From: an uncultured Solirubrobacteraceae bacterium
GTDB lineage: Bacteria; Actinomycetota; Thermoleophilia; Solirubrobacterales; Solirubrobacteraceae
Assembly: GCA_902806205.1 (NCBI GenBank)
Contig: CADCVR010000102.1
Span: 17,640 to 81,639, forward strand
DNA: 64,000 nt
Direction: 5' to 3'
This document shows positions 46,491 to 63,998 of this stretch, piece after piece. Below the pieces are notes generated by a model that worked only from the letters and a program-made list of their open reading frames with translations, ran no database searches and was not told where the DNA came from. A program made the position numbers and the translations under genes. Numbering within the stretch: position 1 is the stretch's first letter; every line of letters begins with the position of its first letter.

Positions 46491-46507
46491 GATGTAGCGG
46501 ACACACA
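46491..46507. promoter_or_regulatory. Candidate operator motif, copy 1 (GATGTAGCGGACACACA)
   Basis: Matches TG-N9-CACA pattern seen upstream of three other locus units. Confidence 0.35.
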
Positions 46508-47402: not shown

Positions 47403-47419
47403 TGTGTATGGTCGCCACA
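47403..47419. promoter_or_regulatory. Candidate operator motif, copy 2 (TGTGTATGGTCGCCACA)
   Basis: GGTGTG-N9-CACACC inverted repeat 65 bp upstream of hydrogenase pair 1. Confidence 0.45.
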
Positions 47420-47484: not shown

Positions 47485-48783
47485 ATGTCTTACGACGAAG
47501 TGGCAGCAGACCCCCTGAGCAACCCGGTCGGGGGCCCGGACCCTGACGACAACATCATCCACCTCTTCTGGCTCCAGGGCATGGGCTGCGACGGATGTAC
47601 CACGGCGCTGCTGGCGGCCAACCGTCCCTCCTTGGAGGAGATGGTGCTGGGAACCGTGCCTCGCATCCCGCGGATCATCCTGCACCACCCGATGCTCGAC
47701 GACGACTCCGGTCCCGATTTCATGAGCGCGTACCGGCAGGCCGTCGAGGGAACGCTGGGAGCGCCGTACGTCGTGGTGCTCGAGGGGTCGATCCCCGACG
47801 ATCAGAGCTTCCCGGGGGAGGGATACTTCGCGGCACTGGGTGTCGCCGCCGACGCCCCGCAGGGAATGCGCGCCACCGGGCGCCCGGACCAGCCGCTGCG
47901 CGTCAGCGACTGGGCGTGGGCGATGGCCCGCCGCGCAGAGGCCTGCTTCTCGATCGGCACGTGCGCCACCTGGGGCGGCATCCCGGCGGCCGCGGGCAAC
48001 ATCACCGGTTCCATGGGCTTCATGGACTACCTGGGCAGGGAGTATCGCTCGGCCCGGGGGTTGCCCGTCGTCAACGTTCCGGGGTGCGCTCCGATCGGCG
48101 ACAACTTCACCGAGACCCTGATGCAGGTGCTGTTGTATTTCGACGGGGCCGTGAAGCTGCCGGAGTTCGACGAACTCGGCCGTCCCGAGTGGATGTTCGC
48201 CGAGACGGTGCACCGGCACTGCATGAAGGCCGGGTACTACGAGGAGGGCGTGTTCGCCCACGAGCCCGGCGACAACGAGTGCCTCGTCGAGATCGGCTGC
48301 TGGGGTCCGGTGGTGCAGTGCAACATCACCGAGCGCGGCGCGATCAACCACACGGGTGGCTGCATGATCGCGGGCGGGGCGTGCATCGGCTGCACGATGC
48401 CCGGTTTCCCGGACAAGTACAGCCCGTTCTACAAGGCGCCTCCGGGCTCGGCGGTCTCGGGCACCGTCTCGCGGATCTACGGCGGTGGCATCCGCCGGCT
48501 GCGCCGCCTGTCGATGACGGCCGGCAACCACACGCCGATCTGGGACCGCGCTGACCACATCCCCTCCGCCTGGGGGATCGCCGCAGGCCAGAAGACGCCA
48601 GCCCAGAAGGTCAACGCGTACTTCTACAAGAAGTTGCAGTACAAGGGCACCGTCAACCACTCCGCGCGCAACAAGAAGCAGCCGCAGCCCGGGAGCCGTG
48701 ACATCCTCAAGCAGAAGGGCGTCGACATGAGCGCGAGCGTCCCCGTGCTGGGCGAACGGGTCGTCACCCGGGAGGAGCTGTGA
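47485..48783 (+). CDS. [NiFe]-hydrogenase small subunit, paralog 1 (group 1l-like, no Tat signal)
   Basis: CDGC, GTCATWGG, PGCAP proximal; HRHC...ECL...GC distal; QC...GGC...CIGC medial. Confidence 0.95.
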   Translation: MSYDEVAADPLSNPVGGPDPDDNIIHLFWLQGMGCDGCTTALLAANRPSLEEMVLGTVPRIPRIILHHPMLDDDSGPDFMSAYRQAVEGTLGAPYVVVLEGSIPDDQSFPGEGYFAALGVAADAPQGMRATGRPDQPLRVSDWAWAMARRAEACFSIGTCATWGGIPAAAGNITGSMGFMDYLGREYRSARGLPVVNVPGCAPIGDNFTETLMQVLLYFDGAVKLPEFDELGRPEWMFAETVHRHCMKAGYYEEGVFAHEPGDNECLVEIGCWGPVVQCNITERGAINHTGGCMIAGGACIGCTMPGFPDKYSPFYKAPPGSAVSGTVSRIYGGGIRRLRRLSMTAGNHTPIWDRADHIPSAWGIAAGQKTPAQKVNAYFYKKLQYKGTVNHSARNKKQPQPGSRDILKQKGVDMSASVPVLGERVVTREEL

Positions 48784-50477
48784 TGCACGCCGTGAGCCAG
48801 CAGGGCGCCGGTCAGCTGCGGCGCATCGACTTCGATCCCGTGGCCCGGGTGGCAGGTGGCCTCGCTCTGCGCACGGTGGTCGACACCGAGCGTTTCGAGG
48901 TCGTCGAGGCCAGCATGCTGGCCACGATGTACCGCGGCTACGAGGTGCTCCTCCGTGGCCGCGACCCGCGCGACGCGGTCTTCGTCTCCAGCCGCGCGTG
49001 CGGCGTCTGCGGCGGTGCGCACGCATGGACGTCCGCGCTGGCGTGCGAGATGGCCTACGGCTCTGCCCCGCCCGCCATGGGCATCGTGGCGCGCAACTGG
49101 CTCTCGGCGCTCGAGGATCTCTGCGACCTGCCGCACCACCTCTTCCAGCGCGCCGGCCCGGACTTCTCCGAGCCGCTCGTGCGCCAGACCAGTCCCGAGC
49201 TGTGGGCGCGTGCGCAACAGACCCCGGCAGCCAACGTCGCGACGCACGGGTACGGCCTGGTGTCGGAGATCATGACGGCGATGACGCCGTTCAGGGGCGG
49301 CCTCTACCGCAGGGCGCTGGAGCTGACGCGCGTCGCCAAAGAGGCCTACGGGCTCGTGGGTGGCAAGCATCCGCACCCCCAGACGACCACGCCCGCCGGG
49401 GTCAGTGCGCTGATCGACCCCTCCGACCGGAACCTGACGTTGCTGCGGATCGACAAGTTCCTGGACTACAGTCGCGAGGTGGCGGCGGTCTGGGACGATC
49501 TCGCCGATTTCTTCCTCACGGCCGATCCCCGCTACGCCGACGTGGGCGCCGGGCCGAAGAACTTCTTCGATTTCGGCCGGTGGGACGACCCGTTCGCCTA
49601 CGATGCCACGTTCGAGAACGCCCCGGTCTGGGGTGAGCGGCGCTGGTCGACTCCCGGCGTGATCGTCGACGGGCGATTGCGGACCACGAATCTCCACCAG
49701 ATCGACGGCGGCGTCGAGGAGTTCGTCGACCGCTCCTTCTACGAGGACTGGAGTGCCGACGGGGGCGTCTACGCCACGGACCCGGCGGGCAACAACGTGT
49801 CCGCCCGCCATCCCTGGAACAAGGAGACACTCCCGCAGCCGGGCGGCCCCAACCTCAACGGGCAGTACTCGTGGTCGACCGCGCCGCGCTGGGACCGCCT
49901 CGCGATGGAGACCGGTGCCGGCGCGCGCATGTGGATCACCGCGATGGCGCGCAAGCAGCCTCACTCACGGTTTGTCGAGTCGACGGGCCACAGCCTCGTC
50001 ATGCACATGCCCCAGGCCGCGCTGCCGGAGGCGACGCTCGAGTGGCTGGTGCCCGAGCGCTGGAATGCGTTCGAGCGCAATCGGGCGCGGGCGTACTCGC
50101 TCGTCCATTCGACGCTCGTCGCCTACGAGAACGTCTTGATCGGCTACGACCTCGCCCGCATCGGGGGCCCCGACGCCCGGACCTTCACCGAGTACGAGAT
50201 CCCCAAGGGCGGCGTCGTCGGCGTGGGCTACTGGGGCGGCCCCCGCGGTGCCATCAGCCATCACATGGAGATCGACAACCGCGTGATCCGCAACTACCAG
50301 ATCCTCGCCGGCTCCACGTTCAACGCCTCGCCGATGGACCCGTTCGGCACTCCCGGACCGTGCGAGGCGGCGGTGATGGGCACGCCGCTTCTCAGTACGC
50401 GGCAGCCCGAGCGGTACCTCGACGCGATGCGTGCCGTCCGCAGCTTCGATCCCTGCATGTCCTGCGCGACGCACTGA
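48783..50477 (+). CDS. [NiFe]-hydrogenase large subunit, paralog 1, lacking C-terminal extension
   Basis: L1 RACGVCGGAH, GPRG canopy Arg, L2 FDPCMSCATH followed directly by TGA. Confidence 0.95.
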   Translation: MHAVSQQGAGQLRRIDFDPVARVAGGLALRTVVDTERFEVVEASMLATMYRGYEVLLRGRDPRDAVFVSSRACGVCGGAHAWTSALACEMAYGSAPPAMGIVARNWLSALEDLCDLPHHLFQRAGPDFSEPLVRQTSPELWARAQQTPAANVATHGYGLVSEIMTAMTPFRGGLYRRALELTRVAKEAYGLVGGKHPHPQTTTPAGVSALIDPSDRNLTLLRIDKFLDYSREVAAVWDDLADFFLTADPRYADVGAGPKNFFDFGRWDDPFAYDATFENAPVWGERRWSTPGVIVDGRLRTTNLHQIDGGVEEFVDRSFYEDWSADGGVYATDPAGNNVSARHPWNKETLPQPGGPNLNGQYSWSTAPRWDRLAMETGAGARMWITAMARKQPHSRFVESTGHSLVMHMPQAALPEATLEWLVPERWNAFERNRARAYSLVHSTLVAYENVLIGYDLARIGGPDARTFTEYEIPKGGVVGVGYWGGPRGAISHHMEIDNRVIRNYQILAGSTFNASPMDPFGTPGPCEAAVMGTPLLSTRQPERYLDAMRAVRSFDPCMSCATH

Positions 50478-50491
50478 GGCGGGCCAAGCGG

Positions 50492-50517
50492 CGACGGGTG
50501 ACCGCGGTCACCCGTCG
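50492..50517. terminator. Perfect 26-bp palindrome between convergent genes
   Basis: CGACGGGTGACCGCGGTCACCCGTCG equals its own reverse complement. Confidence 0.6.
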
Positions 50518-51095
50518 GCCTCGGGTACGGCCTCTTCGGGAAGCGCCTCCTCGCAGGCCCGGACGAAGAAGCCGTACAGCCAAGGCCGCTTGAGCTCGGC
50601 GGGGTCCCCCTCGACGGGGCCCTCGAGCTCGCGGAGGTAGTCCTCGATCGTGCGTCGCGCCAGGAAGTGGCGCACGTGGCCGCCGGGGCCCGGGACACGC
50701 CAGCTCTTCGCGAGCTCGTCGTCGGGACTCGGCTTGCCGAGCGGCTCCGACCGGGCTATGTCGCCGCACGCCTCCGCGATGGCTTGCGGCCAGTTCCCTG
50801 CCCTCGCGTGGTACTCGCGCAGCATCTCCGGGATCCAGTCAGCGGGCCGGCGGGCGGGCTCGAAGTACTCCGCCTCGACGAGGCGGCTCAGGTATCCGGC
50901 CTGGCGCAGGCGGTTGTCCAGATCGAACGGATTGTCGCCGGCGAGCGTCTGGTCGCGCGTCTCCAGCACCTCGGCGATGAATCCGGGTGGTCGCTCGCCG
51001 CGCCGCTCCTCGACGCGCGCGAAGACGGCTTCGACCAGCGTCTGCATGACCAGCCCGGTGTCGACGGGAAGCAGCCCGCCGGGTTCGCTCATCAT
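50508..51095 (-). CDS. Hypothetical helical protein between the two hydrogenase pairs
   Basis: 195-aa ORF with typical codon style; no family recognised. Confidence 0.75.
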   Translation of the reverse strand: MMSEPGGLLPVDTGLVMQTLVEAVFARVEERRGERPPGFIAEVLETRDQTLAGDNPFDLDNRLRQAGYLSRLVEAEYFEPARRPADWIPEMLREYHARAGNWPQAIAEACGDIARSEPLGKPSPDDELAKSWRVPGPGGHVRHFLARRTIEDYLRELEGPVEGDPAELKRPWLYGFFVRACEEALPEEAVPEADG

Positions 51096-51183
51096 CGTTC
51101 GAAATCCCCATCTGCGCGAGTGAGTGCGCGACCGCGGCGCTACCTTAAGTCTTGCGCCAAGTTCACAGCACCGGAAGGTCCTA

Positions 51184-51200
51184 TGTGTAGTATGCACACA
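51184..51200. promoter_or_regulatory. Candidate operator motif, copy 3 (TGTGTAGTATGCACACA)
   Basis: TGTGT-N7-ACACA palindrome 31 bp upstream of hydrogenase pair 2. Confidence 0.45.
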
Positions 51201-51231
51201 GCGCAGTCAACGCTGGGAGGAGAGCAAGTCT

Positions 51232-52581: not shown

Positions 52582-52584
52582 ACC

Positions 52585-54504
52585 ATGTGCTTCAAGAATC
52601 TGCCGATCGAGTTCGATTCGCAGGGCAACGCGACGCTGAAGCAGGGCGTCGCAAACCCCTACACCTACACCGAGACGCCGGCGCCCACGCCCATCGAGGA
52701 CGATCCGGAGCGGATGCGGGAGCTGTTTGCGCGCAACGGTGCGATCCGGCGCGTCGACTTCGACCCGGTGACCCGCGTCGCGGGAGCGCTCGCCTTCCAC
52801 ACGGTGGTCGATCTCGACAGTCGTGAGGTGCTCGAGACCGCCTCGATGGCGACCCTGTTCCGTGGCTACGAGGTCATCCTCCAGGGCCGTGATCCGCGCG
52901 ATGCGATCAACATCTCCAGCCGGGCCTGCGGCGTGTGCGGCGGCGTGCACGCCACGACGTCCGCCCTGGCGTGCGAGATGGCCTTCGGCATCTCGCCGCC
53001 GCCGATGGGCGTCGTGGCGCGCAACCTGCTGCTCTCGACGGAGTACCTCTACGACCATCCGATCCACTTGTCGCTGCTCGCCGGTCCGGACTTCTCCGAG
53101 GAGGCGGTGCGCGAGACCAACCCGGAGATCTGGACGCGCGCCGAGAACACGCGCACTCAGGGCCGTGAGGTGCACGGCTATGAGTTCATGTCGGAGCTGA
53201 TGACCGACCTGACGCCGCTGACCGGCAAGCTGTACCTCGAGGGCCTGTACTACACGCGTCTCGCGCGCGAGGCGTACGTGCTCATCGGCGGCAAGTACCC
53301 TCACCCGCACACGGTCGTGCCCGGCGGCGTCAGCACGACGATCGACCCCTCCGACCTCAACGAGATCATGCTGCGGGTGGTCAAGTACTTCGACTACGGC
53401 CGCAAGACCGTGGCCATCTGGAACGACATCGCGGAGTTCTTCTACGACGTCAACCCGAAGTACAAGGACATCGGGACCCGTCCGAAGAACATGGTCGAGC
53501 CCGGCCAGTGGGACGATCCGTTCGCCTACGACGCCAGCTATGAGAACTGCGACGACTGGGGCCGCCGGCGCTGGGCGACCCCCGGCGTGCTCGTCGACGG
53601 AGAGCTCGTCACCACGAGCCTGCAGATGGTCAACGCGGGCGTCGAGGAGTTCGTCGAGCACGCCTTCTACGAGGAGTGGACCGGCAACGGCTCCGGCAAC
53701 GAGTACTACAAGTTCCCGACCGATCCGGCCGGCAACCCGTTGTCGCCGTACCACCCGTGGAACAAGGAGACGATCCCCAAGCCGACCGCGACCAGCTGGA
53801 AGGAGAAGTACTCCTGGTCGACGGCCCCTCGCTGGGATCGCATGGCGATGGAGACGGGGGCCTACTCGCGGATCTGGACGGCGGCGATGACGCCGAACTA
53901 CCGTCAGAGCAACTACATCGAGCCCACCGGGCACAGCCTCAAGATCCACCTGCCCAAGGCCTCGCTGCCCAACACCGAGATCGAGTGGAAGATTCCCGAG
54001 GTCTGGGGTGCCTTCGAGCGCAATCGCGCGCGCGCCTACTGCATCCTGTACACGGCGGCCATCGCGTACGACAACCTCCTGCTGGCCTACGACCTGCTGC
54101 GCAAGGGCGGGCCGGACGCCAAGATGTCGACGCCGTTCAAGGTGCCGAAGGATCACCGCATCGGCGTCGGGTTGTGGAGCGCCGGCCGCGGCTATCTGAC
54201 CCATCACATGGAGATCGACAAGGGCGTCATCAAGAACTACCAGATCCTGACCCCCTCGACGTGGATGGCGTCGCCGAAGGACCCCTTCGGCAACCCGGGG
54301 CCCTACGAGGAGGCGGTCATGGCCACGCCGCTGCTGGAGAACTACGAGAAGCCCGAGGACTTCAAGGGCATCGACGTGCTCCGGGCGATCCGCAGCTTCG
54401 ACCCGTGCATGCCGTGCACCACGCACATCCACTCCGACGACCGGACGATCACCCGCGAGATCATCAGCTGCGCATGCGGCGCGACCGGAGACCATGAGCA
54501 CTAG
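52585..54504 (+). CDS. hylL: [NiFe]-hydrogenase large subunit, group 1l-type, with 25-aa cleavable extension
   Basis: MCFKNLPIEFD N-terminus, L1 RACGVCGGVH, L2 FDPCMPCTTH plus IHSDDRTITREIISCACGATGDHEH. Confidence 0.9.
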   Translation: MCFKNLPIEFDSQGNATLKQGVANPYTYTETPAPTPIEDDPERMRELFARNGAIRRVDFDPVTRVAGALAFHTVVDLDSREVLETASMATLFRGYEVILQGRDPRDAINISSRACGVCGGVHATTSALACEMAFGISPPPMGVVARNLLLSTEYLYDHPIHLSLLAGPDFSEEAVRETNPEIWTRAENTRTQGREVHGYEFMSELMTDLTPLTGKLYLEGLYYTRLAREAYVLIGGKYPHPHTVVPGGVSTTIDPSDLNEIMLRVVKYFDYGRKTVAIWNDIAEFFYDVNPKYKDIGTRPKNMVEPGQWDDPFAYDASYENCDDWGRRRWATPGVLVDGELVTTSLQMVNAGVEEFVEHAFYEEWTGNGSGNEYYKFPTDPAGNPLSPYHPWNKETIPKPTATSWKEKYSWSTAPRWDRMAMETGAYSRIWTAAMTPNYRQSNYIEPTGHSLKIHLPKASLPNTEIEWKIPEVWGAFERNRARAYCILYTAAIAYDNLLLAYDLLRKGGPDAKMSTPFKVPKDHRIGVGLWSAGRGYLTHHMEIDKGVIKNYQILTPSTWMASPKDPFGNPGPYEEAVMATPLLENYEKPEDFKGIDVLRAIRSFDPCMPCTTHIHSDDRTITREIISCACGATGDHEH

Positions 54505-54543
54505 GACGTCCGCGGGCACGCGCACCGGAGGCCGATAGCCCCA

Positions 54544-55017
54544 GTGCGCGTGCTCGTCTGCGGGGTCGGCTACCGGTTTCTGCGCGACGGGGCGCTCGGT
54601 CCCTACATGTCAGACACCCTGTCGGCGCGTGCCACCGAGCGGGTGGAGGTCGAGGACCTCGGCTACCACCCGGTCGGTTTCACGCAGAACTTGCAGGAGC
54701 GGCCGGACTACGATCGGATCGTGTTCGTGGCCGCGGTCGATCGCGGTCGCGCGCCCGGGACGATCAAGGCGTATCGCTATGATCATTGCCTGCCCTCCTC
54801 CAAAGAGGTCCAAGAGCGTGTCGGCGACTCCGTGACAGGTTCGATCTCGCTGGACAACCTGCTGATCGTCTCTGAGGCGTTCAAGGCGCTGCCCGACGAC
54901 GTCTGGGTCGTGGAGGTCGAGCCGGCCGACGAGACCTGGGGCGAGGGGTTCAGTCCCATCGTCGAGGCGAAGCTGCCGGAGATCACGGAGACCATATGGA
55001 ATTTGACCAAGCCGTAG
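54544..55017 (+). CDS. Hydrogenase maturation protease-like protein, degenerate metal site
   Basis: VLVCGVGYRFLRDGALG, IVFVAAVDRGRAPG, WGEGFSP; HybD/HycI-fold pattern with substitutions. Confidence 0.8.
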   Translation: MRVLVCGVGYRFLRDGALGPYMSDTLSARATERVEVEDLGYHPVGFTQNLQERPDYDRIVFVAAVDRGRAPGTIKAYRYDHCLPSSKEVQERVGDSVTGSISLDNLLIVSEAFKALPDDVWVVEVEPADETWGEGFSPIVEAKLPEITETIWNLTKP

Positions 55018-55943
55018 CTGAATTGGACACCCTCGTCGGGACCCTCGAACGGGAGGGCGACACGCGGGCGCTGATGCTGCTCGATCTGATGGACGCCGTG
55101 CACCGGCCCGCGCTCGAGCTGATCGTGGCCGGCGACTCCCGCCACCCCGTGGCGCACGCCCTGCTCTCCATGTACGACCTCGCGCCGCTCGACGAGTACG
55201 TGCAGGTCGAGGAGGCGCTCGACGAGATCCGCCCCTACATCGAGTCGCACGGCGGCGGCCTGGACCTGCTCGATGTCGAGGCGGACGAGGGCATCGTCCA
55301 CGTACGCCTGCACGGCTCGTGCCACGGATGCGCGGGCTCGGCGATCACCCTGCGGCGCGGCGTGGAGGAGAAGCTTCGCGAGCGTCTGGACTGGTTCACC
55401 GGGGTCGTCGCCCACGAGGACGACGACGCCGCCGAGACGGCGGAGGGACCGGAGGACGGCATCGCCGCCAAGCTGCTGAAGATCGAGCACTTCAACAGCG
55501 ACATCAAGGCTGCAGGACCCCTTTTGCCGAGTGCTCCCGTCGGCGCGGCCGGTCAGCCGGCCGACCCTTCCGGCGGCACCCTGCTGCAGATCGAGGGCAT
55601 CCGTCGAGAGAAGGTCGGCAGGCCGGTGTTCGTCGAGGCCGGCGCGCTCGCCGACCTGCCGCCGGGCGGGTCGAAGGCCGTCGACGTCGACGGGAACTCG
55701 ATCCTCATCATCAACGTCGACGGCGAGCCGTACGCGTTTCGGAACGTCTGCCCCGTCGACGGGCGGTCGGAGCTCTACGGCGGACACGTCACGGGCTCCG
55801 TCATCGTCTGTCCGTGGCACAACTGCGCCTACGACGCGCGCTCCGGCAAGCGCGTGGACGACCAGCCCCAGGAACCCGCGCTGGCGGTGGTGCCGATCGC
55901 GGTCCACGACGGCATGCTGCAGGTGGCGGCGAACGTCGCGTGA
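54996..55943 (+). CDS. NifU-like plus Rieske-like Fe-S protein (HhyE/HucE-like)
   Basis: IRPYIESHGG...GSCHGC NifU motif; CPV...CPWH Rieske-like motif. Confidence 0.85.
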   Translation: MEFDQAVAELDTLVGTLEREGDTRALMLLDLMDAVHRPALELIVAGDSRHPVAHALLSMYDLAPLDEYVQVEEALDEIRPYIESHGGGLDLLDVEADEGIVHVRLHGSCHGCAGSAITLRRGVEEKLRERLDWFTGVVAHEDDDAAETAEGPEDGIAAKLLKIEHFNSDIKAAGPLLPSAPVGAAGQPADPSGGTLLQIEGIRREKVGRPVFVEAGALADLPPGGSKAVDVDGNSILIINVDGEPYAFRNVCPVDGRSELYGGHVTGSVIVCPWHNCAYDARSGKRVDDQPQEPALAVVPIAVHDGMLQVAANVA

Positions 55944-56431
55944 GCACCGCGATCCCCTCCGAGGCGCCGGGCGTCCGCGCCCGGCGCGTGCTCGTCGCGG
56001 GCGTCGGGAACGTTCTTCGAGGCGACGACGGGTTCGGGCCGGCGGTGACCGAAATGCTCGGTGACCTCCCCGAGGGCGCAGACGTCGTGGAGACGGGGAT
56101 CGGTGGCATCGCCCTTCTGCAGGAGTTGATGCGGGGCTACGACGGCCTGATCCTGATCGACGCGGTCGAGCGTGGCGCCGACCCGGGAACCGTCTTTCTC
56201 ATAGAACCGGAGGTCGACATGGGTGTCCACGTCCCGGACATCCACCTCGCCAACCCGCACCGTGTGCTGTCGATGGCCAAGACAATGGGGGTGCTGCCCG
56301 CCCGGGTGGTGATCGTCGGCTGTCAGCCGCTGGACGTCGAGGAGATGTGCCAGGGGCTCTCCCCGCCGGTGCAGCGTGCTCTCGCCCCCGCCGTTACCAG
56401 GATTCAGGAGATCGTCGATGAATGGCTTTGA
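55940..56431 (+). CDS. Hydrogenase maturation endopeptidase (HybD/HupD family), intact
   Basis: GVGNVLRGDDGFG, LIDAV, DIHLANP. Confidence 0.92.
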   Translation: MSTAIPSEAPGVRARRVLVAGVGNVLRGDDGFGPAVTEMLGDLPEGADVVETGIGGIALLQELMRGYDGLILIDAVERGADPGTVFLIEPEVDMGVHVPDIHLANPHRVLSMAKTMGVLPARVVIVGCQPLDVEEMCQGLSPPVQRALAPAVTRIQEIVDEWL

Positions 56432-57311
56432 CTCAATCGCGGAGATGCGCCAAGCGCTCGCCGGGCAGCGCTACCTGGCCGACGAGGGCCTGGCGACCGT
56501 GGCGTTTCTCGCCTTGCGGCTTCGACGCCCTCTGCTCGTGGAAGGTGAGCCCGGCGTCGGGAAGACCGAGCTTGCGAAGGCCCTTGCGGCGGCCACCGGC
56601 GCACCGCTCATCCGCCTGCAGTGCTATGAGGGGATCGATGTCCACCAGGCGCTGTACGACTGGGACTACCCCCGGCAGCTGCTGCAGTTGCGCGCGGGGG
56701 GATCCGCGCCGCTGTACTCCGAGGAGTTCATGCTCCGCAGGCCGCTGCTCGAGGCGCTCGCCTCCGATCCGGCGCGCCCCGCCGTGCTGCTGATCGACGA
56801 GCTCGATCGCGCCGACGACGAGTTCGAAGCGTTCCTGCTCGAGTTCCTGTCCGACTTTCAGGTGACGATCCCCGAGCTCGGAGTCATCAAGGCCGCGGCG
56901 CCGCCGACCGTGATCATCACGTCGAACCGCACCCGCGACCTGCATGAGGCACTCAAGCGCCGCTGCCTGTACCACTGGATCGACCACCCCGACCTCGCTC
57001 GAGAGGTGGCGATCGCCCGCGCTCGCCTGCCCCACATCAGCGAGCGCCTCACCACCCAGGTGTGCAGCTTCGTCCATGAGCTGCGGTTCCTGGACCTCTA
57101 CCGCTCACCCGGGGTGGGCGAGACCCTCGACTGGGCCGAGGCCTTCCACGTCCTGGGGCGCCAGCAGATGGACGCTTCCACGGCCGACCGGACGCTCGGC
57201 ACGCTGCTCAAGGAGCGCGACGACATCGAGCGCATCCGTGGCAAGCCGGTGGAGGCGCTGATCGACCGCGCCAATGGCGTCCCGAAGGATGGAGCCAGCG
57301 GTGACCATTAA
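56418..57311 (+). CDS. MoxR-family AAA+ ATPase (CoxD-like)
   Basis: GEPGVGKT, RLQCYEG, LLIDELDRAD, TSNRTRDLHEALKRRC. Confidence 0.93.
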   Translation: MNGFDSIAEMRQALAGQRYLADEGLATVAFLALRLRRPLLVEGEPGVGKTELAKALAAATGAPLIRLQCYEGIDVHQALYDWDYPRQLLQLRAGGSAPLYSEEFMLRRPLLEALASDPARPAVLLIDELDRADDEFEAFLLEFLSDFQVTIPELGVIKAAAPPTVIITSNRTRDLHEALKRRCLYHWIDHPDLAREVAIARARLPHISERLTTQVCSFVHELRFLDLYRSPGVGETLDWAEAFHVLGRQQMDASTADRTLGTLLKERDDIERIRGKPVEALIDRANGVPKDGASGDH

Positions 57312-58587
57312 ATCTGACCAGCTCGGCCCGCCGTCCGGCCAGCCCGTCCTCGCCGCTGCAGTAGGGCTCGCGCGCGTGCTGCGCACCTTCGGGATGTCGG
57401 CGAGCGTGGACAGCGAGCACGTCTTCATGCGCGCACTCGCAGAGATCGACGTGCGAGAGCGCGACGCCGTCTACTGGGCCGCCCACGCCGCGTTCGTGCA
57501 CGGTCCCGATGAGCGCCCCGTGTTCGACGTCGTCTTCGAGCGCTTCTGGGAGGGCCGGGCGCTGATCCTCGAGGAGCGCGGTGCCGAGCACGGCGAGGAC
57601 GACGCGCGCATGAGCGGTTCTCACCACGGTGGCGAGTCACTGCCGCAGTTCGGCGCCGAGGGGGAACAGGCGTCTCCTCTGGACGGCGACAACAACCGCG
57701 CCACGCGCGAGATCCCCAGCCCTGACGGCAACGAGGGCAAGAGCAACCAGGAGATCGGCGTCCTGGCCGCCTGGAGTGCCCAGGACACGGCGAGCGAGGA
57801 AGAGCGGCTGAAGTACCAGGCCGACGAGCTCGCGGCGCTCCGTCAGCTGGCTCACGAGATCAAGCGTGCCGCACCCGAGCGGCGCTCCCGGCGATGCAAG
57901 CCGGCGCCCGGCGGGGACCGGCTTGACGTCCGCGGGACCCTGCGCGGCTCGCTGGCGACCGACGGCGAAGCGTTCCGGCTGTCGTTCACCGCGCCGACGC
58001 TCCGTCCGAGACGGCTGCTGTTCCTCTGTGACGTCTCGGGGTCGATGGAGCGCTACTCGCGCGTCCTGCTCGCCTCGCTGAAGGCGGCGGTCGGCGCGAC
58101 GCGGAAGGCGGAGGCCTTCGTCTTCGCCACGCGCCTGACGCGACTGACCCGGTCGCTCGATGGTCATGACCTGGAGCGCGCGCTCGATCATGCACGCGCC
58201 GCGATCCCCGACTGGTCGGGGGGCACGCGGATCGGGGCGGCGCTCGAGGAGTTCAACCACAGCTACGGTCGTCGCGGGTTCGCACGCGGCGCGATCGTCA
58301 TCGTGGTCAGCGACGGCTGGGATCGAGGCGACCCCGAGATCCTGGCCACCGAGGTTCGCCGGCTGCAGCTTCAGGCCCGGCAGCTGGTCTGGATCAACCC
58401 CCGCCCCATGACCGTCGATCAGCAGCCGCTCGCGATCGGCATGCGCGCGGCGATGCCGTACGTCGACGAGTTCGTCGCCGGACACGATCCGAGGGCCATC
58501 GCCGGGCTTGCCCGGTTGATCGGCGGTCTCGGCGCCGACCGCCCGCAGCGCGCGGTGGTTCCACGCGCTGCTCCAACCGTCGCCTGA
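57301..58587 (+). CDS. VWA-domain protein (CoxE-like)
   Basis: DVRGTLR, CDVSGSMERY MIDAS, FATRLT, WSGGTRIG, VSDGWD, WINP. Confidence 0.92.
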   Translation: MTIKSDQLGPPSGQPVLAAAVGLARVLRTFGMSASVDSEHVFMRALAEIDVRERDAVYWAAHAAFVHGPDERPVFDVVFERFWEGRALILEERGAEHGEDDARMSGSHHGGESLPQFGAEGEQASPLDGDNNRATREIPSPDGNEGKSNQEIGVLAAWSAQDTASEEERLKYQADELAALRQLAHEIKRAAPERRSRRCKPAPGGDRLDVRGTLRGSLATDGEAFRLSFTAPTLRPRRLLFLCDVSGSMERYSRVLLASLKAAVGATRKAEAFVFATRLTRLTRSLDGHDLERALDHARAAIPDWSGGTRIGAALEEFNHSYGRRGFARGAIVIVVSDGWDRGDPEILATEVRRLQLQARQLVWINPRPMTVDQQPLAIGMRAAMPYVDEFVAGHDPRAIAGLARLIGGLGADRPQRAVVPRAAPTVA

Positions 58588-58595
58588 CGCCAACG

Positions 58596-58632
58596 GTCGC
58601 CTGACGCTCGCTTCGAGCGGGCGTCAGGCGAC
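58596..58632. terminator. 17-bp stem hairpin between convergent genes, overlapping a 17-bp tandem duplication (58573-58606)
   Basis: GTCGCCTGACGCTCGCT-TCG-AGCGGGCGTCAGGCGAC. Confidence 0.65.
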
Positions 58633-58701
58633 GCGGCTTCGTCGGGCTCGACGCTCCCGGGCTGCTTTCCGGGCACTACCGGTGTAGCGCCCGGAACGCG
58701 C

Positions 58702-59139
58702 TCAGCGCTGTCGCAGCGGCTCGCCCGTGCGCTCGGCGCCCGCGTTGCGGGCCACAGAGAGCAGGCCGAGTCCCAGCGCCGCGGAGCCCGAGACCAGGTG
58801 CAGCACGTTGTCCAATTCGCCGGCGCCGTTCATCGAGATGATCTGGAGGCTGTTCGCGAATCCGAGGAACGTCGCCAGGAGGTAGACCAGGCCACCACCG
58901 ATCAGCGCTCCTTCCGTTACCGGCCGGCTGACCTGCGAGACGATGATGAGGTAGATGCCGATCGCCAGGTGCACCACGTTGTGGAACGGGTTGATCGCGA
59001 AGCCCAACAGCGCATCGTCGGTGTTCTGCACGAAGTTGCCGAATCCCGTGATGAAGAACCCGATCACACCCGCTGCCGCGTAGACGGCCCCCACCACGAG
59101 TGCTCCGGCCTGCGCGAAGCCCTTGTTGCTCAGATCCAT
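58702..59139 (-). CDS. DUF4383-like 4-TM membrane protein
   Basis: FAINPFHNVVHLAIG and DNVLHLVSG motifs. Confidence 0.82.
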   Translation of the reverse strand: MDLSNKGFAQAGALVVGAVYAAAGVIGFFITGFGNFVQNTDDALLGFAINPFHNVVHLAIGIYLIIVSQVSRPVTEGALIGGGLVYLLATFLGFANSLQIISMNGAGELDNVLHLVSGSAALGLGLLSVARNAGAERTGEPLRQR

Positions 59140-59248
59140 ACTTGAATTCTCCCCCGCTAGGTGTCTCGAACACCTTACTGCGTCCACCCACCGGGAGGGA
59201 GAAAATCGAACGGCGCGGTTTCCACGGCGGTCTCGCACGCGTGCGGCA

Positions 59249-59279
59249 GTCGTGCCGCGACTGTCGTGCCGCGACTGTC
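59249..59279. repeat. 14-bp tandem repeat x2.2 (GTCGTGCCGCGACT) in divergent promoter region
   Basis: Direct inspection. Confidence 0.75.
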
Positions 59280-59493
59280 CCTCCGCCTTGTCGCAGGCTC
59301 CCACGCGGGTTGAAGACGTCGGCCGCGAGGGGCCGGCGGGACACGCGGCCGTCCGCGATCCGACCGCGGTGGCAGCGGGTCGGCCGTTGCGCCGGGCTCG
59401 TCCGGCCGCAATCCGTCAGCTTCAGCGGGAAACCCCGGTTTTCGGCGCCTTCGCCCGCCCCGAAGGGGTCAGGAGCGACAGGTCGGCGCGATA

Positions 59494-59510
59494 GGTGTTG
59501 CAAACACACA
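59494..59510. promoter_or_regulatory. Candidate operator motif, copy 4 (GGTGTTGCAAACACACA)
   Basis: GTG-N9-CAC, 23 bp upstream of the small TM gene array. Confidence 0.4.
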
Positions 59511-59533
59511 GTCGTTGTGTCAGGCTCGCTCCA

Positions 59534-59821
59534 ATGAGAGCCCTTGCCGTGCAGAGCGTCGAATCACAGTCTTATACGGGGTGGTGGACCGGCTTGATCA
59601 TCGGCTTCGTCGTCGTCTGGGTCGTCGTCATCCTCGTCGGCACCATCCTGATGTACGCGTCGCGCATCGCCGACCAGGCCAAGGAGGGGATCGCGCGAAT
59701 GGATGAGGCCCGCGCCACCACGCTCCCGATCTGGGAGCTGCAGGACCTCAACGTCGCTGCGACGGGTATTTGGAAGGCGGTCGAGTCCACTCGGCCCGTA
59801 CTCGAGGAGAAGATCAGATGA
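59534..59821 (+). CDS. Small single-TM coiled-coil protein A (HylTM-like)
   Basis: One TM helix followed by amphipathic helix; ATGA coupling to next gene. Confidence 0.75.
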   Translation: MRALAVQSVESQSYTGWWTGLIIGFVVVWVVVILVGTILMYASRIADQAKEGIARMDEARATTLPIWELQDLNVAATGIWKAVESTRPVLEEKIR

Positions 59822-60108
59822 CGGTGCTTGCTCTGACCGAGGACGAACGGGTCTTCTGGTACATAGCCCTGGGCATGGGGCTCGTAGTGATCCTGGTGGT
59901 CATCGTGCTCCTGTCCCTGCTGATCTCGCTCGTGCGGGACATCGACGAGGGAGTGGTCACGCTCTGGACGGTGACCAAGCGCCTGGCGACCAACACCACC
60001 GGCGCGTACCAGCTCGCCGGCACGGCCTCGATCCTGCGCGCGTTGCGCGAGGAGTGCCTGCGCCAGGACAAGATGCTCACCGAGCGCAACGGGATGGCAA
60101 GACGATGA
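59818..60108 (+). CDS. Small single-TM coiled-coil protein B (HylTM-like)
   Basis: WYIALGMGLVVILVVIVLL...VRDIDEGV...KRLATNT. Confidence 0.8.
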   Translation: MTVLALTEDERVFWYIALGMGLVVILVVIVLLSLLISLVRDIDEGVVTLWTVTKRLATNTTGAYQLAGTASILRALREECLRQDKMLTERNGMARR

Positions 60109-60377
60109 GCAAGACACTGCTGACGGTCCTCACCGTCGTCGAGATCGTGGCGCTCGTGGCCATCCTCGCGGCCTACTTGCTCGTCGTCGCCAAGCAACTT
60201 CGCTCGATCTCTTCGACGCTGGCCGAGGTCGCATGGGGAGCCCGCGCCGTCGAGCGTCAGTTGCGGGCGGTCCGCTCCAACGTCGGGCAGATCAACGCAG
60301 CGTTGGGAGACGTCGCCGGCGCCCTGCCGGGCGTCATCGACAAGGTCGAAGACCTCAACCGAGGAGCGCGCGTCTGA
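60105..60377 (+). CDS. Small single-TM coiled-coil protein C (HylTM-like)
   Basis: VAILAAYLLVVAKQLRSISSTL...INAAL. Confidence 0.8.
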   Translation: MSKTLLTVLTVVEIVALVAILAAYLLVVAKQLRSISSTLAEVAWGARAVERQLRAVRSNVGQINAALGDVAGALPGVIDKVEDLNRGARV

Positions 60378-60625
60378 TGACCCTTTGGTGGATCGGCAAC
60401 ATCATCTTCCTCGTCGTCGTGATCCCGGTGGTGGCCGTGATCCTCGGCCAGGTCTTCGCCCCCGTCAAGCAGATCGGGGTCTACGCCGACGACATCGCCG
60501 TGCACGGGGCCCTCTTCGGCCCCCACCTTGACGCGTTGCAAGAGCTCGGGACGACCCGCGAGCTCGTGCGCAGGATTTCCCCCGAGCTCGAACGCTACGT
60601 TCGAGCGCTCGACCAGATTCGCTAG
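60377..60625 (+). CDS. Small single-TM coiled-coil protein D (HylTM-like)
   Basis: LWWIGNIIFLVVVIPVV...IGVYADDI; TGATG coupling. Confidence 0.8.
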   Translation: MTLWWIGNIIFLVVVIPVVAVILGQVFAPVKQIGVYADDIAVHGALFGPHLDALQELGTTRELVRRISPELERYVRALDQIR

Positions 60626-60634
60626 GAGACATTC

Positions 60635-61027
60635 ATGAGTGCAGCCCCCGTCGTCACGCTCATCGGTGTAGCGCTCACCGTGGTAGTGATCGCGCTCTAT
60701 TTGATCGGGATCGCGTTGATCCTGAAGCGCGTGCACGCCCGCCTGGTGACCATTCTGGGTGCCGTCGTCGAGGTCAGCGAGAAGTCCGCCCCGGCAGGAG
60801 ACGTGATCGCCGGGATCAACGCTGACCTTGCCCGCGGGCATTCAGCCGTCGGTGCCGCTGTCGAGCGCCTCCAAGAGCGTGTCGCGGCCGACGACGACTT
60901 GAATCGAGGCGGAGACCCGCTGCCCGCCGCGCGCGGCGGCAGCGTGGCAGCCCCGCCGCCCGGCGGCCGCGGCGGCAGCGTGGCAGCCCCGCCGCCCGCC
61001 GACCGCGGCGGATGGTGGCAGCGCTGA
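60635..61027 (+). CDS. Single-TM coiled-coil protein E (HylTM-like) with duplicated RGGSVAAPPP tail
   Basis: VIALYLIGIALILKRV...INADL; 36-bp unit at 60932 and 60968. Confidence 0.8.
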   Translation: MSAAPVVTLIGVALTVVVIALYLIGIALILKRVHARLVTILGAVVEVSEKSAPAGDVIAGINADLARGHSAVGAAVERLQERVAADDDLNRGGDPLPAARGGSVAAPPPGGRGGSVAAPPPADRGGWWQR

Positions 61028-61142
61028 GTTTGTAGCGTCCCGGCGCACAGAAGGTGGTCGGCGCTGAGCGAGACCTCCCGGGGCCCCGCCGCTTTCCGGC
61101 GGGGAAGCGGGCAGGTGAGCAGCCGACCGGTGCATGGTCGGT

Positions 61143-61193
61143 GGGTCACCCGGGCGACACCCGCTTGGGGTCACCCGGGCGACACCCGCTTGG
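61143..61193. repeat. Perfect 25-bp tandem duplication (GGGTCACCCGGGCGACACCCGCTTG x2)
   Basis: Direct inspection. Confidence 0.8.
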
Positions 61194-61439
61194 CGAGCGT
61201 CGCTCGACCCCCGCAGCGTCTCGTCATGCATAGGCCGGCGAGGTGAAGCGCGCACCCCCGGCGACCGCGAGCCAGGTCGAGTCGAGGTGGCCGCACACAC
61301 TGCCTGATCCTGCACGCGCCGTTTTCAGCTCCTATCGATTCCGACCGTCAGACAGCCGGCACCCTAGGCGCCAAGCGGCGTGCGCCCTCAAACCGCGCTC
61401 ACATCAACCTACGAGAAGCGCCGTTTTCACGGCTGCTGG

Positions 61440-61781
61440 GGGTTGCAGCGGGCGGTTGCGAGGACGTTGAGCGCGGCACCGAGGGGGAGGTGGTCGCCGC
61501 CGTTGGCCGAACTGGCGTGAGCGTGATGTTTGGTGGACCAACGGGGTACACAGATGCCGTCGACACCTCGACGTGGGTGGTCGCTGAGCTCGATACGTGG
61601 CGCACGGTCGGTGCGGTCGTCGAGCGCGTCGCTTCTGAGGCTCAGCGCCAGACCGATTTGCTCGAAGACCTTCGGCGGCTCGGGATCGATGAGATTTCGC
61701 ATCGCAAGGGGCAGCGCTAACCTGACTGTCGCCGTCGATCACAACACCGGCCGCCTGGTTCGGGCGGCGGCTGGCCGCGAC
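61440..61781 (+). pseudogene. ISL3-family transposase remnant
   Basis: WRTVGAVVERV...LGIDEISHRKGQR*, then shifted LTVAVDHNTGRLV...GRD; TAC changed to TAAC creates stop and frameshift. Confidence 0.85.
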
Positions 61782-61954
61782 CCCGCCGGGCATTCCCGGA
61801 CTTCCCAACTCCTCCTGCCGACAGTCAATCACCCACGACTGCGCCGTCGCGGACGCCCTGGAGACGCTCAGCAGTCCCGCGCCATCCACTCCGCGGGAGG
61901 GCGAGACCAATCGACTGCCACGCCCGGGTTATTCCGGGCGCGTCCCACCGCCCG

Positions 61955-62653
61955 CTATCCGCCGCTCTCGAACGTCGACACGATCCGGTCGAACACTGGG
62001 AGGTACTTCTCCAGGCGCCGCGCGGGGAGCGTCTGAAACACCATGGTGATCAGCCGGCCTTCCTTGAAGAGGAAGTAGTGGACGTGACCTCCGGGCTCGC
62101 CGGTCGCCGTGTCGAAGGTGTAGTCGTAGCGGTAGCCCGGCAGCCCGGCCAGGACGAGCGCGCGGGGCTGGTTCATCAGACGGACCCGCCCGTCGGCGCG
62201 GACCAGGCGGTCGGTGAGGTCGCGAACGATCGACAGCGTCTCCCGAGTGACCTCCAGGCCGACGGGCGTCACGCGGACGAGCATGGACACGGCTCGTCCT
62301 TCGGCGACGATCAGTTCGACCTGCGGGTCGTCCGAGGGCACGCGCGACCAGGACCTGGGGTAGGCGATCGAGAAGGGCACCTCGGCATTGCGACTGCGGA
62401 AGCGTACGTAGCCCGCGGGATCGGGTTCGGCCTGGGCTTTCGGCGGCGAGGCCGCGGTGGTCGACGGCGCGGCGGCGGGGCCAGACGCCTGCGGCGCGGG
62501 CGACGACACGACAGCTCGGCCGACGGCCGCCGCTGCGATCAGGACCACGACGCCGGCAGCGATCACCAGCATCAAGGGGGACCGCGTCGCGCGGGCGAAG
62601 GTCGTGCGCAGGCTGCGGCCCGGTGAGGGGTCCGGAGGGCCGGAAGCGCTCAT
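61955..62653 (-). CDS. Membrane-anchored protein with PsbP/DcrB-like extracellular domain
   Basis: TM, Pro/Ala linker, FSIAYPRSW, LAGLPGYRYDY, FDRIVSTF. Confidence 0.65.
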   Translation of the reverse strand: MSASGPPDPSPGRSLRTTFARATRSPLMLVIAAGVVVLIAAAAVGRAVVSSPAPQASGPAAAPSTTAASPPKAQAEPDPAGYVRFRSRNAEVPFSIAYPRSWSRVPSDDPQVELIVAEGRAVSMLVRVTPVGLEVTRETLSIVRDLTDRLVRADGRVRLMNQPRALVLAGLPGYRYDYTFDTATGEPGGHVHYFLFKEGRLITMVFQTLPARRLEKYLPVFDRIVSTFESGG

Positions 62654-63078
62654 GGGGCGGGGTGGTCAGGCGCTCCGGAAGGGTTCCGATCTACGACGGG
62701 CTCATGCGGAGGCTCTTGCGGAGGAGGTGCGATCGGCGTCTCGAGTGACGTCTCGCGAACGGCGTGTGCCCCGAGTTGGAGGTCCTTCAGCGATGCGAGC
62801 AGTCCGCGCGTCGTATCGGGTTCACGCCCTGTCGGGTGGGCCTCGAGGAGCTGTGTCGCCTTCAACTGAAGGTCCTTGAGGAACGAGACGAGCATCGTCA
62901 TCAGCCCCATGAGCAGGAGCAGGACCACCGCCCCGAATACGAGCGCTACGGTCGCGACCGTGTTGGTCTCGACGAGGGCGACGGTCGCGATCCCGCCGCC
63001 GATCAGAACGACGACGGCGATCGCGACCACGCCGAGGGACCGGCGAACACGCCGGTCCCTCAGTGCGGCCGCGAGCAC
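62650..63078 (-). CDS. 2-TM membrane protein with repeated LKDLQL segment
   Basis: Two hydrophobic helices; SFLKDLQLKA and ASLKDLQLGA; ATGA coupling. Confidence 0.65.
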   Translation of the reverse strand: MLAAALRDRRVRRSLGVVAIAVVVLIGGGIATVALVETNTVATVALVFGAVVLLLLMGLMTMLVSFLKDLQLKATQLLEAHPTGREPDTTRGLLASLKDLQLGAHAVRETSLETPIAPPPQEPPHEPVVDRNPSGAPDHPAP

Positions 63079-63082
63079 AGTC

Positions 63083-63835
63083 TCACCGGTTACAGCTCCG
63101 CGTGCGACCGAGGAGGTTCAGCAGTCGGCTGCAGTCGATCGAGTTCGCGTGCCCGTTGATGGTGTTCGGACCCGTGCCCCCGACCAGATCGAGCACCGTG
63201 GACAGATCGCTTCCGATGGGCCTAGCGATGTCCTGGACGTCCTCCGCCCGGCGGTTGATGCCGGCCACCTCGGGCTCGATCTGGTTCACGTCAGCGAGGA
63301 TCGTGCTGGCGTTGCCACGGATTCCCCTGGCGCTCGCGTTGATCGAGTCGGTGAGGGAGTTGATCGACCGCGCGCTCGCGTTGATCGACCGAGCGTTGCC
63401 GCCGATCGCGAGCACGGACGTGTTGATGGCCGCTGCGCTCGATCCGATCCCGTTGACCGTGGTGTTGATGGGAGTGACGTTCCCGTTGATCGTGGTCGCG
63501 GTCTGGTTGATCGTGGTCGCCGTGCGCAGGATCGTCTTCGCGATCCTGTCGATGTCCTTGGCGGCCGCGAGGGTGTCTGACAGCTGCCCGGTCAACGGCA
63601 TCGCCGCCCGCTTGATCTGACCCGAGATCACGGCCGTCCGTGCCGCGAGCGCGATCGCCTCGGTGTCCGTGCCGATGTCGTTGACCTCGGGCTTGATGAT
63701 CGCCACGCTGTCATCGATCTGGTTGGCGGCGACGAGCGTGCCCGTCAGCATCAACACAGCGGCCAGGGCCCACACGACGATCAGGATCAGGATCGCGGGC
63801 GCGAGCCCGCGGGTTCCCCTGAGAATGCTCAGCAT
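63083..63835 (-). CDS. TM-anchored long Ile/Asn heptad coiled-coil protein with terminal Cys pair
   Basis: About 15 heptads (e.g. INQTATT INGNVTP INTTVNG...); IDC...SC at C-terminus; AAGGGG RBS. Confidence 0.8.
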   Translation of the reverse strand: MLSILRGTRGLAPAILILIVVWALAAVLMLTGTLVAANQIDDSVAIIKPEVNDIGTDTEAIALAARTAVISGQIKRAAMPLTGQLSDTLAAAKDIDRIAKTILRTATTINQTATTINGNVTPINTTVNGIGSSAAAINTSVLAIGGNARSINASARSINSLTDSINASARGIRGNASTILADVNQIEPEVAGINRRAEDVQDIARPIGSDLSTVLDLVGGTGPNTINGHANSIDCSRLLNLLGRTRSCNR

Positions 63836-63848
63836 CGCCAGATCCCCT

Positions 63849-63998
63849 TTAGCACTCGGGGCTGGGGCGGACTTGGGTGGGCACTGGGAGATCCAGCACG
63901 TTCGACTCGCAGATGCTTGTCAGGTGCGAGTTGACCGAGTTCAGCCCACTGTTGATCGCCGTTGCGTCCTCATCGATCGGCCTGAGGATCTCGTTTGC
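63849..63998 (-). CDS. Partial paralog of 63083-63835 (C-terminus only; runs off window)
   Basis: Hand translation ANEILRPIDEDATAINSGLNSVNSHLTSICESNVLDLPVPTQVRPSPEC*. Confidence 0.7.
   Translation of the reverse strand, partial: ANEILRPIDEDATAINSGLNSVNSHLTSICESNVLDLPVPTQVRPSPEC

Follow-up and report, generated by a model that had tools for sequence, protein, structure and literature searches.

Group 1l [NiFe]-hydrogenases (HylSL) were defined by Ortiz et al. (bioRxiv 10.1101/2020.08.06.239558), with Hymenobacter roseosalivarius as the exemplar, through a four-Cys proximal cluster, a long HylS tail, HylE, and an endopeptidase. According to the same study, five genes for single-pass transmembrane (TM) proteins often lie between hylS and hylL, and a tri-Cys motif (CPGCPxC) of one of these HylTM proteins was singled out. 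A HylTM stalk has been proposed together with an AlphaFold 3 model of (HylLS)2 (PMC13554262). A related class, group 1m (HhmSL), was split off by Ray et al. 2022 (PMC9561532). It is described as confined to Actinobacteriota, and its genes for the small (S) and large (L) subunits are adjacent and share a cluster with HybD, an iron-sulfur (FeS) assembly protein, a CooC-type ATPase, a TPR protein, a BirA-like protein, DUF1059, and two small single-TM proteins of 82-92 amino acids (aa). The 64-kb stretch of DNA analysed here (the window; C102:17640-81639) originates from a Solirubrobacteraceae genome of 3.38 Mb with ~70% G+C, whose nearest relatives are metagenome-assembled genomes (MAGs) labelled Solirubrobacterales or Solirubrobacteraceae. 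By its sequence, the window carries a cluster of the predicted atmospheric-H2-scavenging group 1l [NiFe]-hydrogenase type, with two S/L pairs, namely the main enzyme S2/L2 and a paralogous pair S1/L1 (Table 1). The explanation that accounts best for the whole, and that we hold to be more probable than not, is a Thermoleophilia version of the group 1l cluster with a conserved catalytic paralog pair. The group 1l enzyme as such is already known; no description of the dual layout was found in the searchable literature, where it is apparently an undescribed variant of soil Thermoleophilia.

The initial annotation had placed the enzymes in group 1l rather than in group 1h, and the comparison with both groups bore this out. 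The closest solved structure is that of a group 1h enzyme (5AA5; 3e-143 for the large and 3e-103 for the small subunit), and the genome possesses a classical group 1h cluster of its own (contig C79, with CDGD, DPCLPCGVH, and hypCDE). L2 is 40% identical to this 1h enzyme and 39-43% identical to the 1h enzymes of relatives. The proximal cluster reads CDGC in S1, S2, and every S1- or S2-type protein with sequence at this column, versus CDGD in HofK of 5AA5 and in the genome's own HhyS. Similarly, L2 carries DPCMPCTTH versus DPCLPCGVH in the genome's own 1h enzyme, and the MCFKNLP start is invariant across 41 aligned L2-type proteins from 10 phyla. The alignment with HofK stops near residue 408 of the 485-aa frame of S2, with ~77 residues beyond; the C-terminal extension of S2 amounts to ~100 aa and S1 has the same tail. 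A NifU-Rieske protein of the HylE type and a maturation endopeptidase are both encoded in the cluster. The position of the TM genes departs from the 1l description, as S and L genes are adjacent in both pairs and the five TM genes lie ~5 kb downstream of the enzyme genes, not between hylS and hylL. A group 1h cluster was ruled out by CDGC, DPCMPCTTH, and the 40% identity to the genome's own 1h enzyme.

An exact look-up of the L2 sequence returned no record, and close relatives were used in its place. When species-representative genomes were scanned with an alignment built from L2 plus eight of its close homologues, at least 572 relatives were obtained, the 80 best of which were analysed. These consisted of 36 actinobacterial loci (70-92% identity) and 44 others (60-62% identity) from Chloroflexota, Bacteroidota, Acidobacteriota, Gemmatimonadota, Methylomirabilota, Planctomycetota, Verrucomicrobiota, Dormibacterota, and Myxococcota. 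The peptides MCFKNLPI and MATLFRGY were used for the retrieval of the 80 loci; most of these have the MCFKNLP start and a few have a variant or uncalled start. In a class-level sample, only 2 of 251 genomes contained a 1l-type enzyme, too few to tally the paralog by taxon, and its distribution was taken from the 80 loci. The order in the non-actinobacterial loci (hylS, small TM genes, hylL, a protease-like gene, and often NifU-Rieske and HycI) is the published Hymenobacter layout. In a tree rooted on group 1h, from which the H. roseosalivarius sequence was absent, L2 and L1 fell inside the 1l diversity, with Bacteroidota and others having the published layout. All related loci of the window's clade belong to MAGs, and no isolate carrying this clade's enzyme was found among them. 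These alignments and trees make S2/L2 the orthologues of HylS/HylL and place them firmly in group 1l, broadly defined.

The second pair, S1/L1, has diverged considerably from the main enzyme (56% identity between L1 and L2 and 66% between S1 and S2). A pair of the L1 type was found in 15 of the 22 actinobacterial loci with sufficient flank and in none of the 44 loci of other phyla. It is located upstream of the main enzyme in 12 loci, as in the window, and between the VWA gene and the TM cassette in three, and three more metagenome contigs have the same gene order as the window. When 5.8 billion proteins were searched with L1, the top 120 matches included ~90 clusters of L1 length, of which the named ones all came from Thermoleophilia/Actinomycetota MAGs and bore generic names. 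The initial annotation had considered that a dual layout might already be standard for the group; this applies to one Thermoleophilia subclade (15 of the 17 loci with an L2 at least 80% identical) and not to the rest of group 1l, including a subclade at ~71% identity (none of five loci). In this subclade of soil Thermoleophilia, the dual layout is the rule, as is the added MoxR/VWA pair, and both can be seen in public MAGs, two of them from the study in which 1l was defined.

The L1-type proteins are monophyletic (100/100) and lie within the actinobacterial clade (100/100), on long branches (0.38 versus 0.05-0.06 for the window's L1 and L2). All 15 lack the N-terminal MCFKNLP segment and all stop exactly at the His of DPCxxCxxH, L1 itself ending in ...DPCMSCATH. 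Four of the four Ni-site Cys residues are kept in all 15 L1-type proteins, as are 12 of the 12 FeS ligands in all 13 S1-type proteins. Between close genome pairs, the ratio of nonsynonymous to synonymous substitution rates (dN/dS) was 0.15-0.37 for L1 and 0.12-0.28 for S1, versus 0.04-0.10 for L2 and 0.05-0.13 for S2. No frameshift or stop occurred in the 15 L1-type copies, and L1 as a pseudogene was ruled out by the intact ligands, the terminal pattern, and purifying selection. S1 departs from S2 mainly in the N-terminal half, which is the large-subunit face (45-55% identity); the two agree more closely near the medial and distal clusters (78-90%) and over the tail (58-87%). On these comparisons, S1/L1 is a paralog pair that arose once in the actinobacterial branch and has been kept since under purifying selection.

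L1 is without both ends of HylL. L2 starts with MCFKNLPIEFD and continues past DPCMPCTTH with a 25-aa extension containing CAC, and a C-terminal extension with a conserved ...REV.TCACG... motif is present in all complete L2-type proteins. The protease-family gene that follows hylL encodes a protein in which D[HNLG], G/A/T/S, and G stand in place of the metal triad, the His position being Gly in 73 of 73 members, including that of the window. Of the related loci, 74 are long enough to show what comes after hylL, and in 72 of them, across all sampled phyla, it is directly this dead protease. The other endopeptidase of the cluster keeps GNxxxxDDG, D, and H. In every phylum sampled, group 1l loci with a single enzyme were found to contain the dead protease, the active protease, and the NifU-Rieske protein. 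Two proteases serving two enzymes were thereby ruled out, because L1 has no peptide to cleave and both genes are found in single-enzyme loci. Probably, the dead protease binds the C-terminal peptide of HylL with its CAC, either as a chaperone or as a subunit. Apart from this, the HylL N-terminus MCFKNLP.EFD (52585-52620), with its Cys2, recalls the MC..P start of HypC. The ...REV.TCACG... motif (54430-54504) lies in the presumed cleaved C-terminal peptide of HylL; L1 has neither this motif nor MCFKNLP.

The identification of the five small TM genes with HylTM held as well. In the synteny comparison, the TM proteins of the window aligned one to one and in the same order with the five open reading frames (ORFs) between hylS and hylL, with collinearity to Bacteroidota, Gemmatimonadota, and Chloroflexota loci. 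In 10 canonical loci, the hylS-hylL gap was read fully and contained five single-TM ORFs. The second TM protein carries CPGCPxC in nine of these 10 loci, a Planctomycetota locus being the one without; this motif is absent from the window and from 24 of 24 actinobacterial HylTM2 orthologues (0-2 Cys each). Judging from this collinearity, HylTM1-5 were relocated together, as one cassette, from the hylS-hylL gap to a downstream site.

None of the accessory genes tracks the S1/L1 paralog. A chaperone kit tied to the dual system, as the initial annotation had it, was not borne out. The AAA+/VWA pair is confined to actinobacterial loci and one Dormibacteria locus, and the 195-aa protein to 21 actinobacterial loci, both with or without L1; the HylTM cassette too is present in actinobacterial loci without L1. 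By analogy with related ATPase modules, the MoxR/VWA pair would be a chaperone that uses ATP for assembly of, or metal insertion into, the Hyl enzyme generally, not for the paralog. No report of a MoxR/VWA pair in a hydrogenase cluster was found in the searched literature. The NCBIfam names "MadB/MadC" were dropped, as a literature search gave unrelated proteins. The 195-aa protein has an invariant motif (WRVPGPGGHVRH / WR[VI]PGPGGHVRH) and an all-helical AlphaFold2 (AF2) model with a predicted local distance difference test score of 91; Foldseek gave no match in the PDB (best E 1.3), and Pfam and NCBIfam searches were empty. Homologues of the DUF4383 protein adjoin the cluster in L011, L012, and L029 only. 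Homologues of the proteins encoded at 61955-63998 do so only in these three loci and L078, and their link to the hydrogenase is therefore loose.

A motif, TGTW-N7-CACA, occurs four times in the window versus 0.45 expected, although the pattern was derived from the same sites, so that this count is circular. In the related loci, ~13 of the 23 matches in 599 kb sit 35-82 bp upstream of S1, S2, or HylTM1, and the consensus in relatives is TGTACnATrCACACA. It represents a candidate operator or promoter element. As it also precedes S1, S2, and HylTM1 in related loci, S1/L1 seems to share its regulation with the stalk genes and with the main enzyme. In relatives, PadR genes are found with the cluster.

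As to the role of S1/L1, a second catalytic module is the reading we prefer, and it has close to an even chance. The pair would be a second H2-oxidising head that passes electrons to the same partners as S2/L2, since S1 keeps the medial/distal region and the C-terminal tail of S2, and the shared acceptor would be HylE and/or the HylTM stalk. L1 would mature without endoproteolysis, and its kinetics, its handling of oxygen, or the condition of its expression would probably set S1/L1 apart from S2/L2. Several points weigh against a second catalytic module. L1 evolves 2-4 times faster than L2 and is altered at ~20 positions that are invariant in 82 L2-type proteins, among which V121A beside CxxC as well as P610S/A and T612A/S in DPCMPCTTH, so that altered or reduced catalysis is possible. 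The AF2 model of L2, built from 41 sequences, has a good core and low confidence for residues 1-67 and 615-639. The use of HylE/HylTM by both modules is suggested by sequence conservation only. Finally, a missing large-subunit C-terminal peptide is a hallmark of H2-sensing hydrogenases.

This last point leads to the sensing role inferred in the initial annotation, whereby S1/L1 would be an H2 sensor like group 2b HoxBC/HupUV, unprocessed, of low activity, and controlling S2/L2 expression. The absence of the peptide from 15 of 15 L1-type proteins, as in regulatory large subunits, would fit such a sensor, and so would the faster evolution of L1 with changes beside active-site motifs and the PadR regulators and shared operator-like motif that accompany the cluster. 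However, signalling partners were not encountered: a profile search found no Response_reg domain on the entire 90-kb contig, as initially noted, while the rest of the genome has 41, and the genes called in the cluster showed no kinase. Furthermore, L1 is nested in group 1l and not in group 2b; S1 has a full three-cluster wire, with exit end and tail as in the respiratory S2; the motif upstream of S1 is that of S2, so the pair looks co-regulated rather than constitutive; and five loci of the deeper subclade have the same cluster without S1/L1. A sensor is thus improbable. Little probability is likewise given to S1/L1 not being an independent enzyme, i.e. a partner in mixed (S1L1)(S2L2) tetramers or a redundant copy under relaxed selection. 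Group 1h enzymes are indeed (SL)2 tetramers (5AA5) and (HylLS)2 has been modelled (PMC13554262), the exit end and tail of S1, which are dimer contacts in group 1h, are its best conserved parts, dN/dS is 2-4 times that of L2 and S2, and the paralog was lost or never present in 7 of the 22 loci. Yet all metal ligands are kept at a divergence down to 55-65% identity, dN/dS is far below 1, and 15 copies show neither frameshift nor stop. A more far-reaching proposal would see in S1/L1 a new, protease-independent class in the 1h/1l lineage, acting on the shared HylE/HylTM stalk as a gating H2/redox sensor or mixed-tetramer partner, with the HylL termini and the dead protease as a maturation checkpoint from which L1 escaped; it is unlikely on the present comparisons. 

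The name of the group deserves separate consideration, as 1l/1m naming is inconsistent for the window's clade. That the actinobacterial clade holding L2 and L1 is group 1m instead of group 1l is possible, albeit the less probable choice. Of the published 1m traits (Actinobacteriota-only, adjacent S/L, HybD, FeS-assembly protein, CooC-type ATPase, and small TM proteins), adjacent S/L genes with HybD, an FeS-assembly protein, and a CooC-type ATPase were found in the window's cluster; its CooC-like CbiA genes are ~20 kb further downstream on the contig, and those of relatives adjoin S1. In addition, Solirubrobacteraceae bin 90 was scored as hhyL=1, hylL=0, and hhmL=1 by Ray et al. (PMC9561532), which is the inventory of the window's genome if the window cluster counts as 1m. 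A tree uniting the window clade with the other actinobacterial clade that has adjacent genes was not rejected by an approximately unbiased (AU) test (p=0.20). However, TPR, BirA-like, and DUF1059 genes were not among the Pfam results of the locus, with one weak DUF1059 match genome-wide, on another contig. The window has five small TM proteins of 82-130 aa, compared with two of 82-92 aa in the 1m description. A phylum-wide sample revealed further actinobacterial clades, namely a canonical TM-interposed type (58-60% identical to L2, whole-genome search), an adjacent-gene type with an MCFQNLP start, and a long-stemmed adjacent-gene clade (L102-L106), with DUF1059 3-12 kb from the enzyme in seven carrier genomes. 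The latter matches the published 1m description better and may be the published group 1m. In the careful tree, the window clade (100/100) and L102-L106 (100/100) were separate; in the best tree, the window clade was sister to Bacteroidota group 1l, with weak support (64/94). Moreover, the group that defined 1l classes actinobacterial enzymes as 1l, and the MAGs of L009 and L043 come from its study. The name 1l is retained here. The duplicated enzyme is not mentioned in the main text and legible supplements of Ray et al. (PMC9561532). Four genomes of Actinomycetota (G295, G580, G504, and G426) each contain two full-length 1l-like large subunits of different clades.

Genes were called from ORFs guided by third-position G+C content (GC3) and from profile searches (Pfam and NCBIfam). 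Every entry of the initial gene list was confirmed (two S/L pairs, two protease-family genes, a NifU-Rieske protein, an AAA+/VWA pair, DUF4383, and membrane proteins), and its absences stood: no Ni_hydr_CYTB match (hydrogenase-type cytochrome b) above cut-off appeared in a genome-wide profile search, and S1 and S2, read directly, bear no twin-arginine (Tat) motif. Its layout was corrected, as the 195-aa gene, the DUF4383 gene, and the 61955-63998 genes are on the minus strand and the cluster exceeds 47485-63998 on both sides (Table 1).

Table 1 Features of the dual hydrogenase cluster and its surroundings in the window (window positions)
Feature	Position	Strand	Remarks
hypE	42520-43539	-	Second hyp set, left of 47485
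hypD	43605-44735	-	HypD 4e-157
SIS-HypC-SIS fusion	44732-~46090	-	HupF_HypC + SIS_2 in one frame; between hypC and hypD
hypC	46087-46365	-	Second hyp set
Motif site 1	46493-46507		Ahead of 178-aa gene at 46689
178-aa protein of no assigned family	46689-47225	+	Shared motif ahead of gene, at 46493
Motif site 2	47405-47419		80 bp before S1 start
S1, paralogous small subunit, 432 aa	47485-48783	+	Oxidored_q6 + NiFe_hyd_SSU_C
L1, paralogous large subunit, 565 aa	48780-50477	+	NiFeSe_Hases 1e-67
195-aa conserved protein	50508-51095	-	Divergent from S2
Motif site 3	51186-51200		46 bp from first base to S2 ATG; 32-bp gap
S2 (HylS), 449 aa	51232-52581	+	Oxidored_q6 + NiFe_hyd_SSU_C
L2 (HylL), 639 aa	52585-54504	+	NiFeSe_Hases 7e-74
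Dead maturation-protease homologue	54544-55017	+	TIGR00072, 63 bits vs cut-off 47
NifU-Rieske protein, HylE/HhyE type	54996-55943	+	NifU 6e-21, Rieske 3e-12
Active-type maturation endopeptidase HupD/HycI	55940-56431	+	HycI 2e-17
MoxR-type AAA+ ATPase	56418-57311	+	AAA_5/AAA profile match
VWA_CoxE protein	57274-58587	+	VWA_CoxE 2e-54
DUF4383 four-TM protein	58702-59139	-	PF14325 2e-17
Motif site 4	59496-59510		38 bp before HylTM1 start
HylTM1-5 cassette (95, 96, 90, 82, and 130 aa)	59534-61027	+	One predicted TM helix each; start/stop codons overlap
Transposase-like remnant	61490-61720	+	In ~0.9-kb gene-poor gap 61028-61954
Three TM-anchored genes: 232 aa (weak PsbP-like), 142 aa, 250 aa with Ile/Asn repeats	61955-63835	-	
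Fourth ORF, same Ile/Asn-repeat type	63849-63998	-	Cut at window end

To the left, the cluster extends to hyp genes on the minus strand (42520-46365), in which the peptides MDQQITLAHGAGG...PRIC and MCLGIPGQI were read; the genome thus has two hypCDE sets, one beside the window cluster and one on contig C79. The 178-aa protein had no Pfam or NCBIfam match; its homologues adjoin the cluster in L029 and L034, and a paralog is encoded on contig C1. To the right, the cluster continues past the window on the contig with an Ile/Asn-repeat membrane protein, four CooC-like CbiA ATPases, and PadR (the latter two at 83520-88397 of contig C102). The first of the four ATPases has a Cys-x-Cys site (GCLCQ). 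This CooC/PadR block is downstream in the window genome and upstream of S1 in relatives. Similarly, hypC follows HylTM5 in L008, L090, and L091, at the position of the gene-poor gap of the window. Besides a transposase-like peptide (...LRRLGIDEISHRKGQR), which we take to resemble ISL3 transposases and which had no match in a Pfam scan, the gap contains a tandem ~35-bp repeat (~61130-61200). The gap and the displaced CooC/PadR block suggest a rearrangement. A tandem duplication (GTCGTGCCGCGACTGTC, two copies) was found between DUF4383 and HylTM1 (59240-59290).

Group 1l hydrogenases are reportedly the commonest hydrogenases of Antarctic desert soils, and the present cluster type is widespread in MAGs of soil Solirubrobacterales and Thermoleophilaceae. 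To our knowledge, no group 1l enzyme has been purified. In the dual layout, a full enzyme stands naturally beside a paralog that retains the electron-exit end but neither terminal segment. Their comparison makes it testable what the dead protease and the two ends of HylL (its invariant N-terminus and its C-terminal peptide) do, as well as whether a HylTM stalk can serve two catalytic heads and whether MoxR/VWA pairs act on hydrogenases. In surveys of hylL/hhmL by similarity, such genomes would be counted twice, or three times when an orphan large subunit is present. Such orphan HylL-like genes, 80-85% identical to L2, were encountered in L089/L031 (8001-9923), L028, L032, L033, L035, and L036. 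Around the orphan of L089, the called genes show no small subunit or accessory genes, and an HTH_3 regulator and unrelated metabolic genes lie nearby; the same 3.17-Mb contig also bears the dual cluster L090. No cluster gene was matched near the other five.

Compared with known systems, the window cluster is nearest to the Hymenobacter group 1l cluster, with which it shares MCFKNLP, the four-Cys proximal cluster, the ~100-aa HylS tail, five collinear TM proteins, a Rieske-type protein, and an endopeptidase, L2 grouping with Bacteroidota, Chloroflexota, Gemmatimonadota, and other 1l enzymes at 60-62% identity. It differs in the adjacency of hylS and hylL, the downstream TM cassette, and one HylTM without the tri-Cys motif, and it adds the MoxR/VWA pair, the 195-aa protein, and the upstream extension-less S/L pair. 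With the group 1h Hhy enzymes (HofKG of Cupriavidus necator, 5AA5, and the genome's own copy on C79), it has in common a cytosolic enzyme without Tat signal or cytochrome b, a NifU-Rieske partner, and hyp genes alongside; group 1h differs by the proximal Asp, DPCLPCGVH, the absence of the MCFKNLP segment, of a long small-subunit tail, and of HylTM, and an identity of 40%. Like group 1m HhmSL, the window's enzyme belongs to an Actinobacteria-only clade with adjacent S/L genes, a HybD-type protease, a NifU-type protein, CooC-type ATPases, and single-TM proteins, but it has no TPR, BirA-like, or DUF1059 gene and five TM proteins rather than two. As in group 2b (HoxC and HupV), L1 has no C-terminal peptide, so no endopeptidase is needed; unlike in group 2b, L1 is phylogenetically 1l, a kinase/regulator partner is lacking, and the exit end of S1 is of the respiratory type. 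The dead protease matches the fold family of the maturation endopeptidases HybD/HycI (TIGR00072), but not their metal-binding Glu/Asp, Asp, and His triad. Lastly, the AAA+/VWA genes constitute the same two-gene MoxR-AAA+/VWA module as CoxD/CoxE (PMC4240915), NorQ/NorD, CbbQ/CbbO, and RavA/ViaA (PMC3893208), and they are co-oriented and overlapping with the enzyme's maturation genes, as in metallo-enzyme chaperone pairs; they differ from these known pairs in that the client would be a [NiFe]-hydrogenase.

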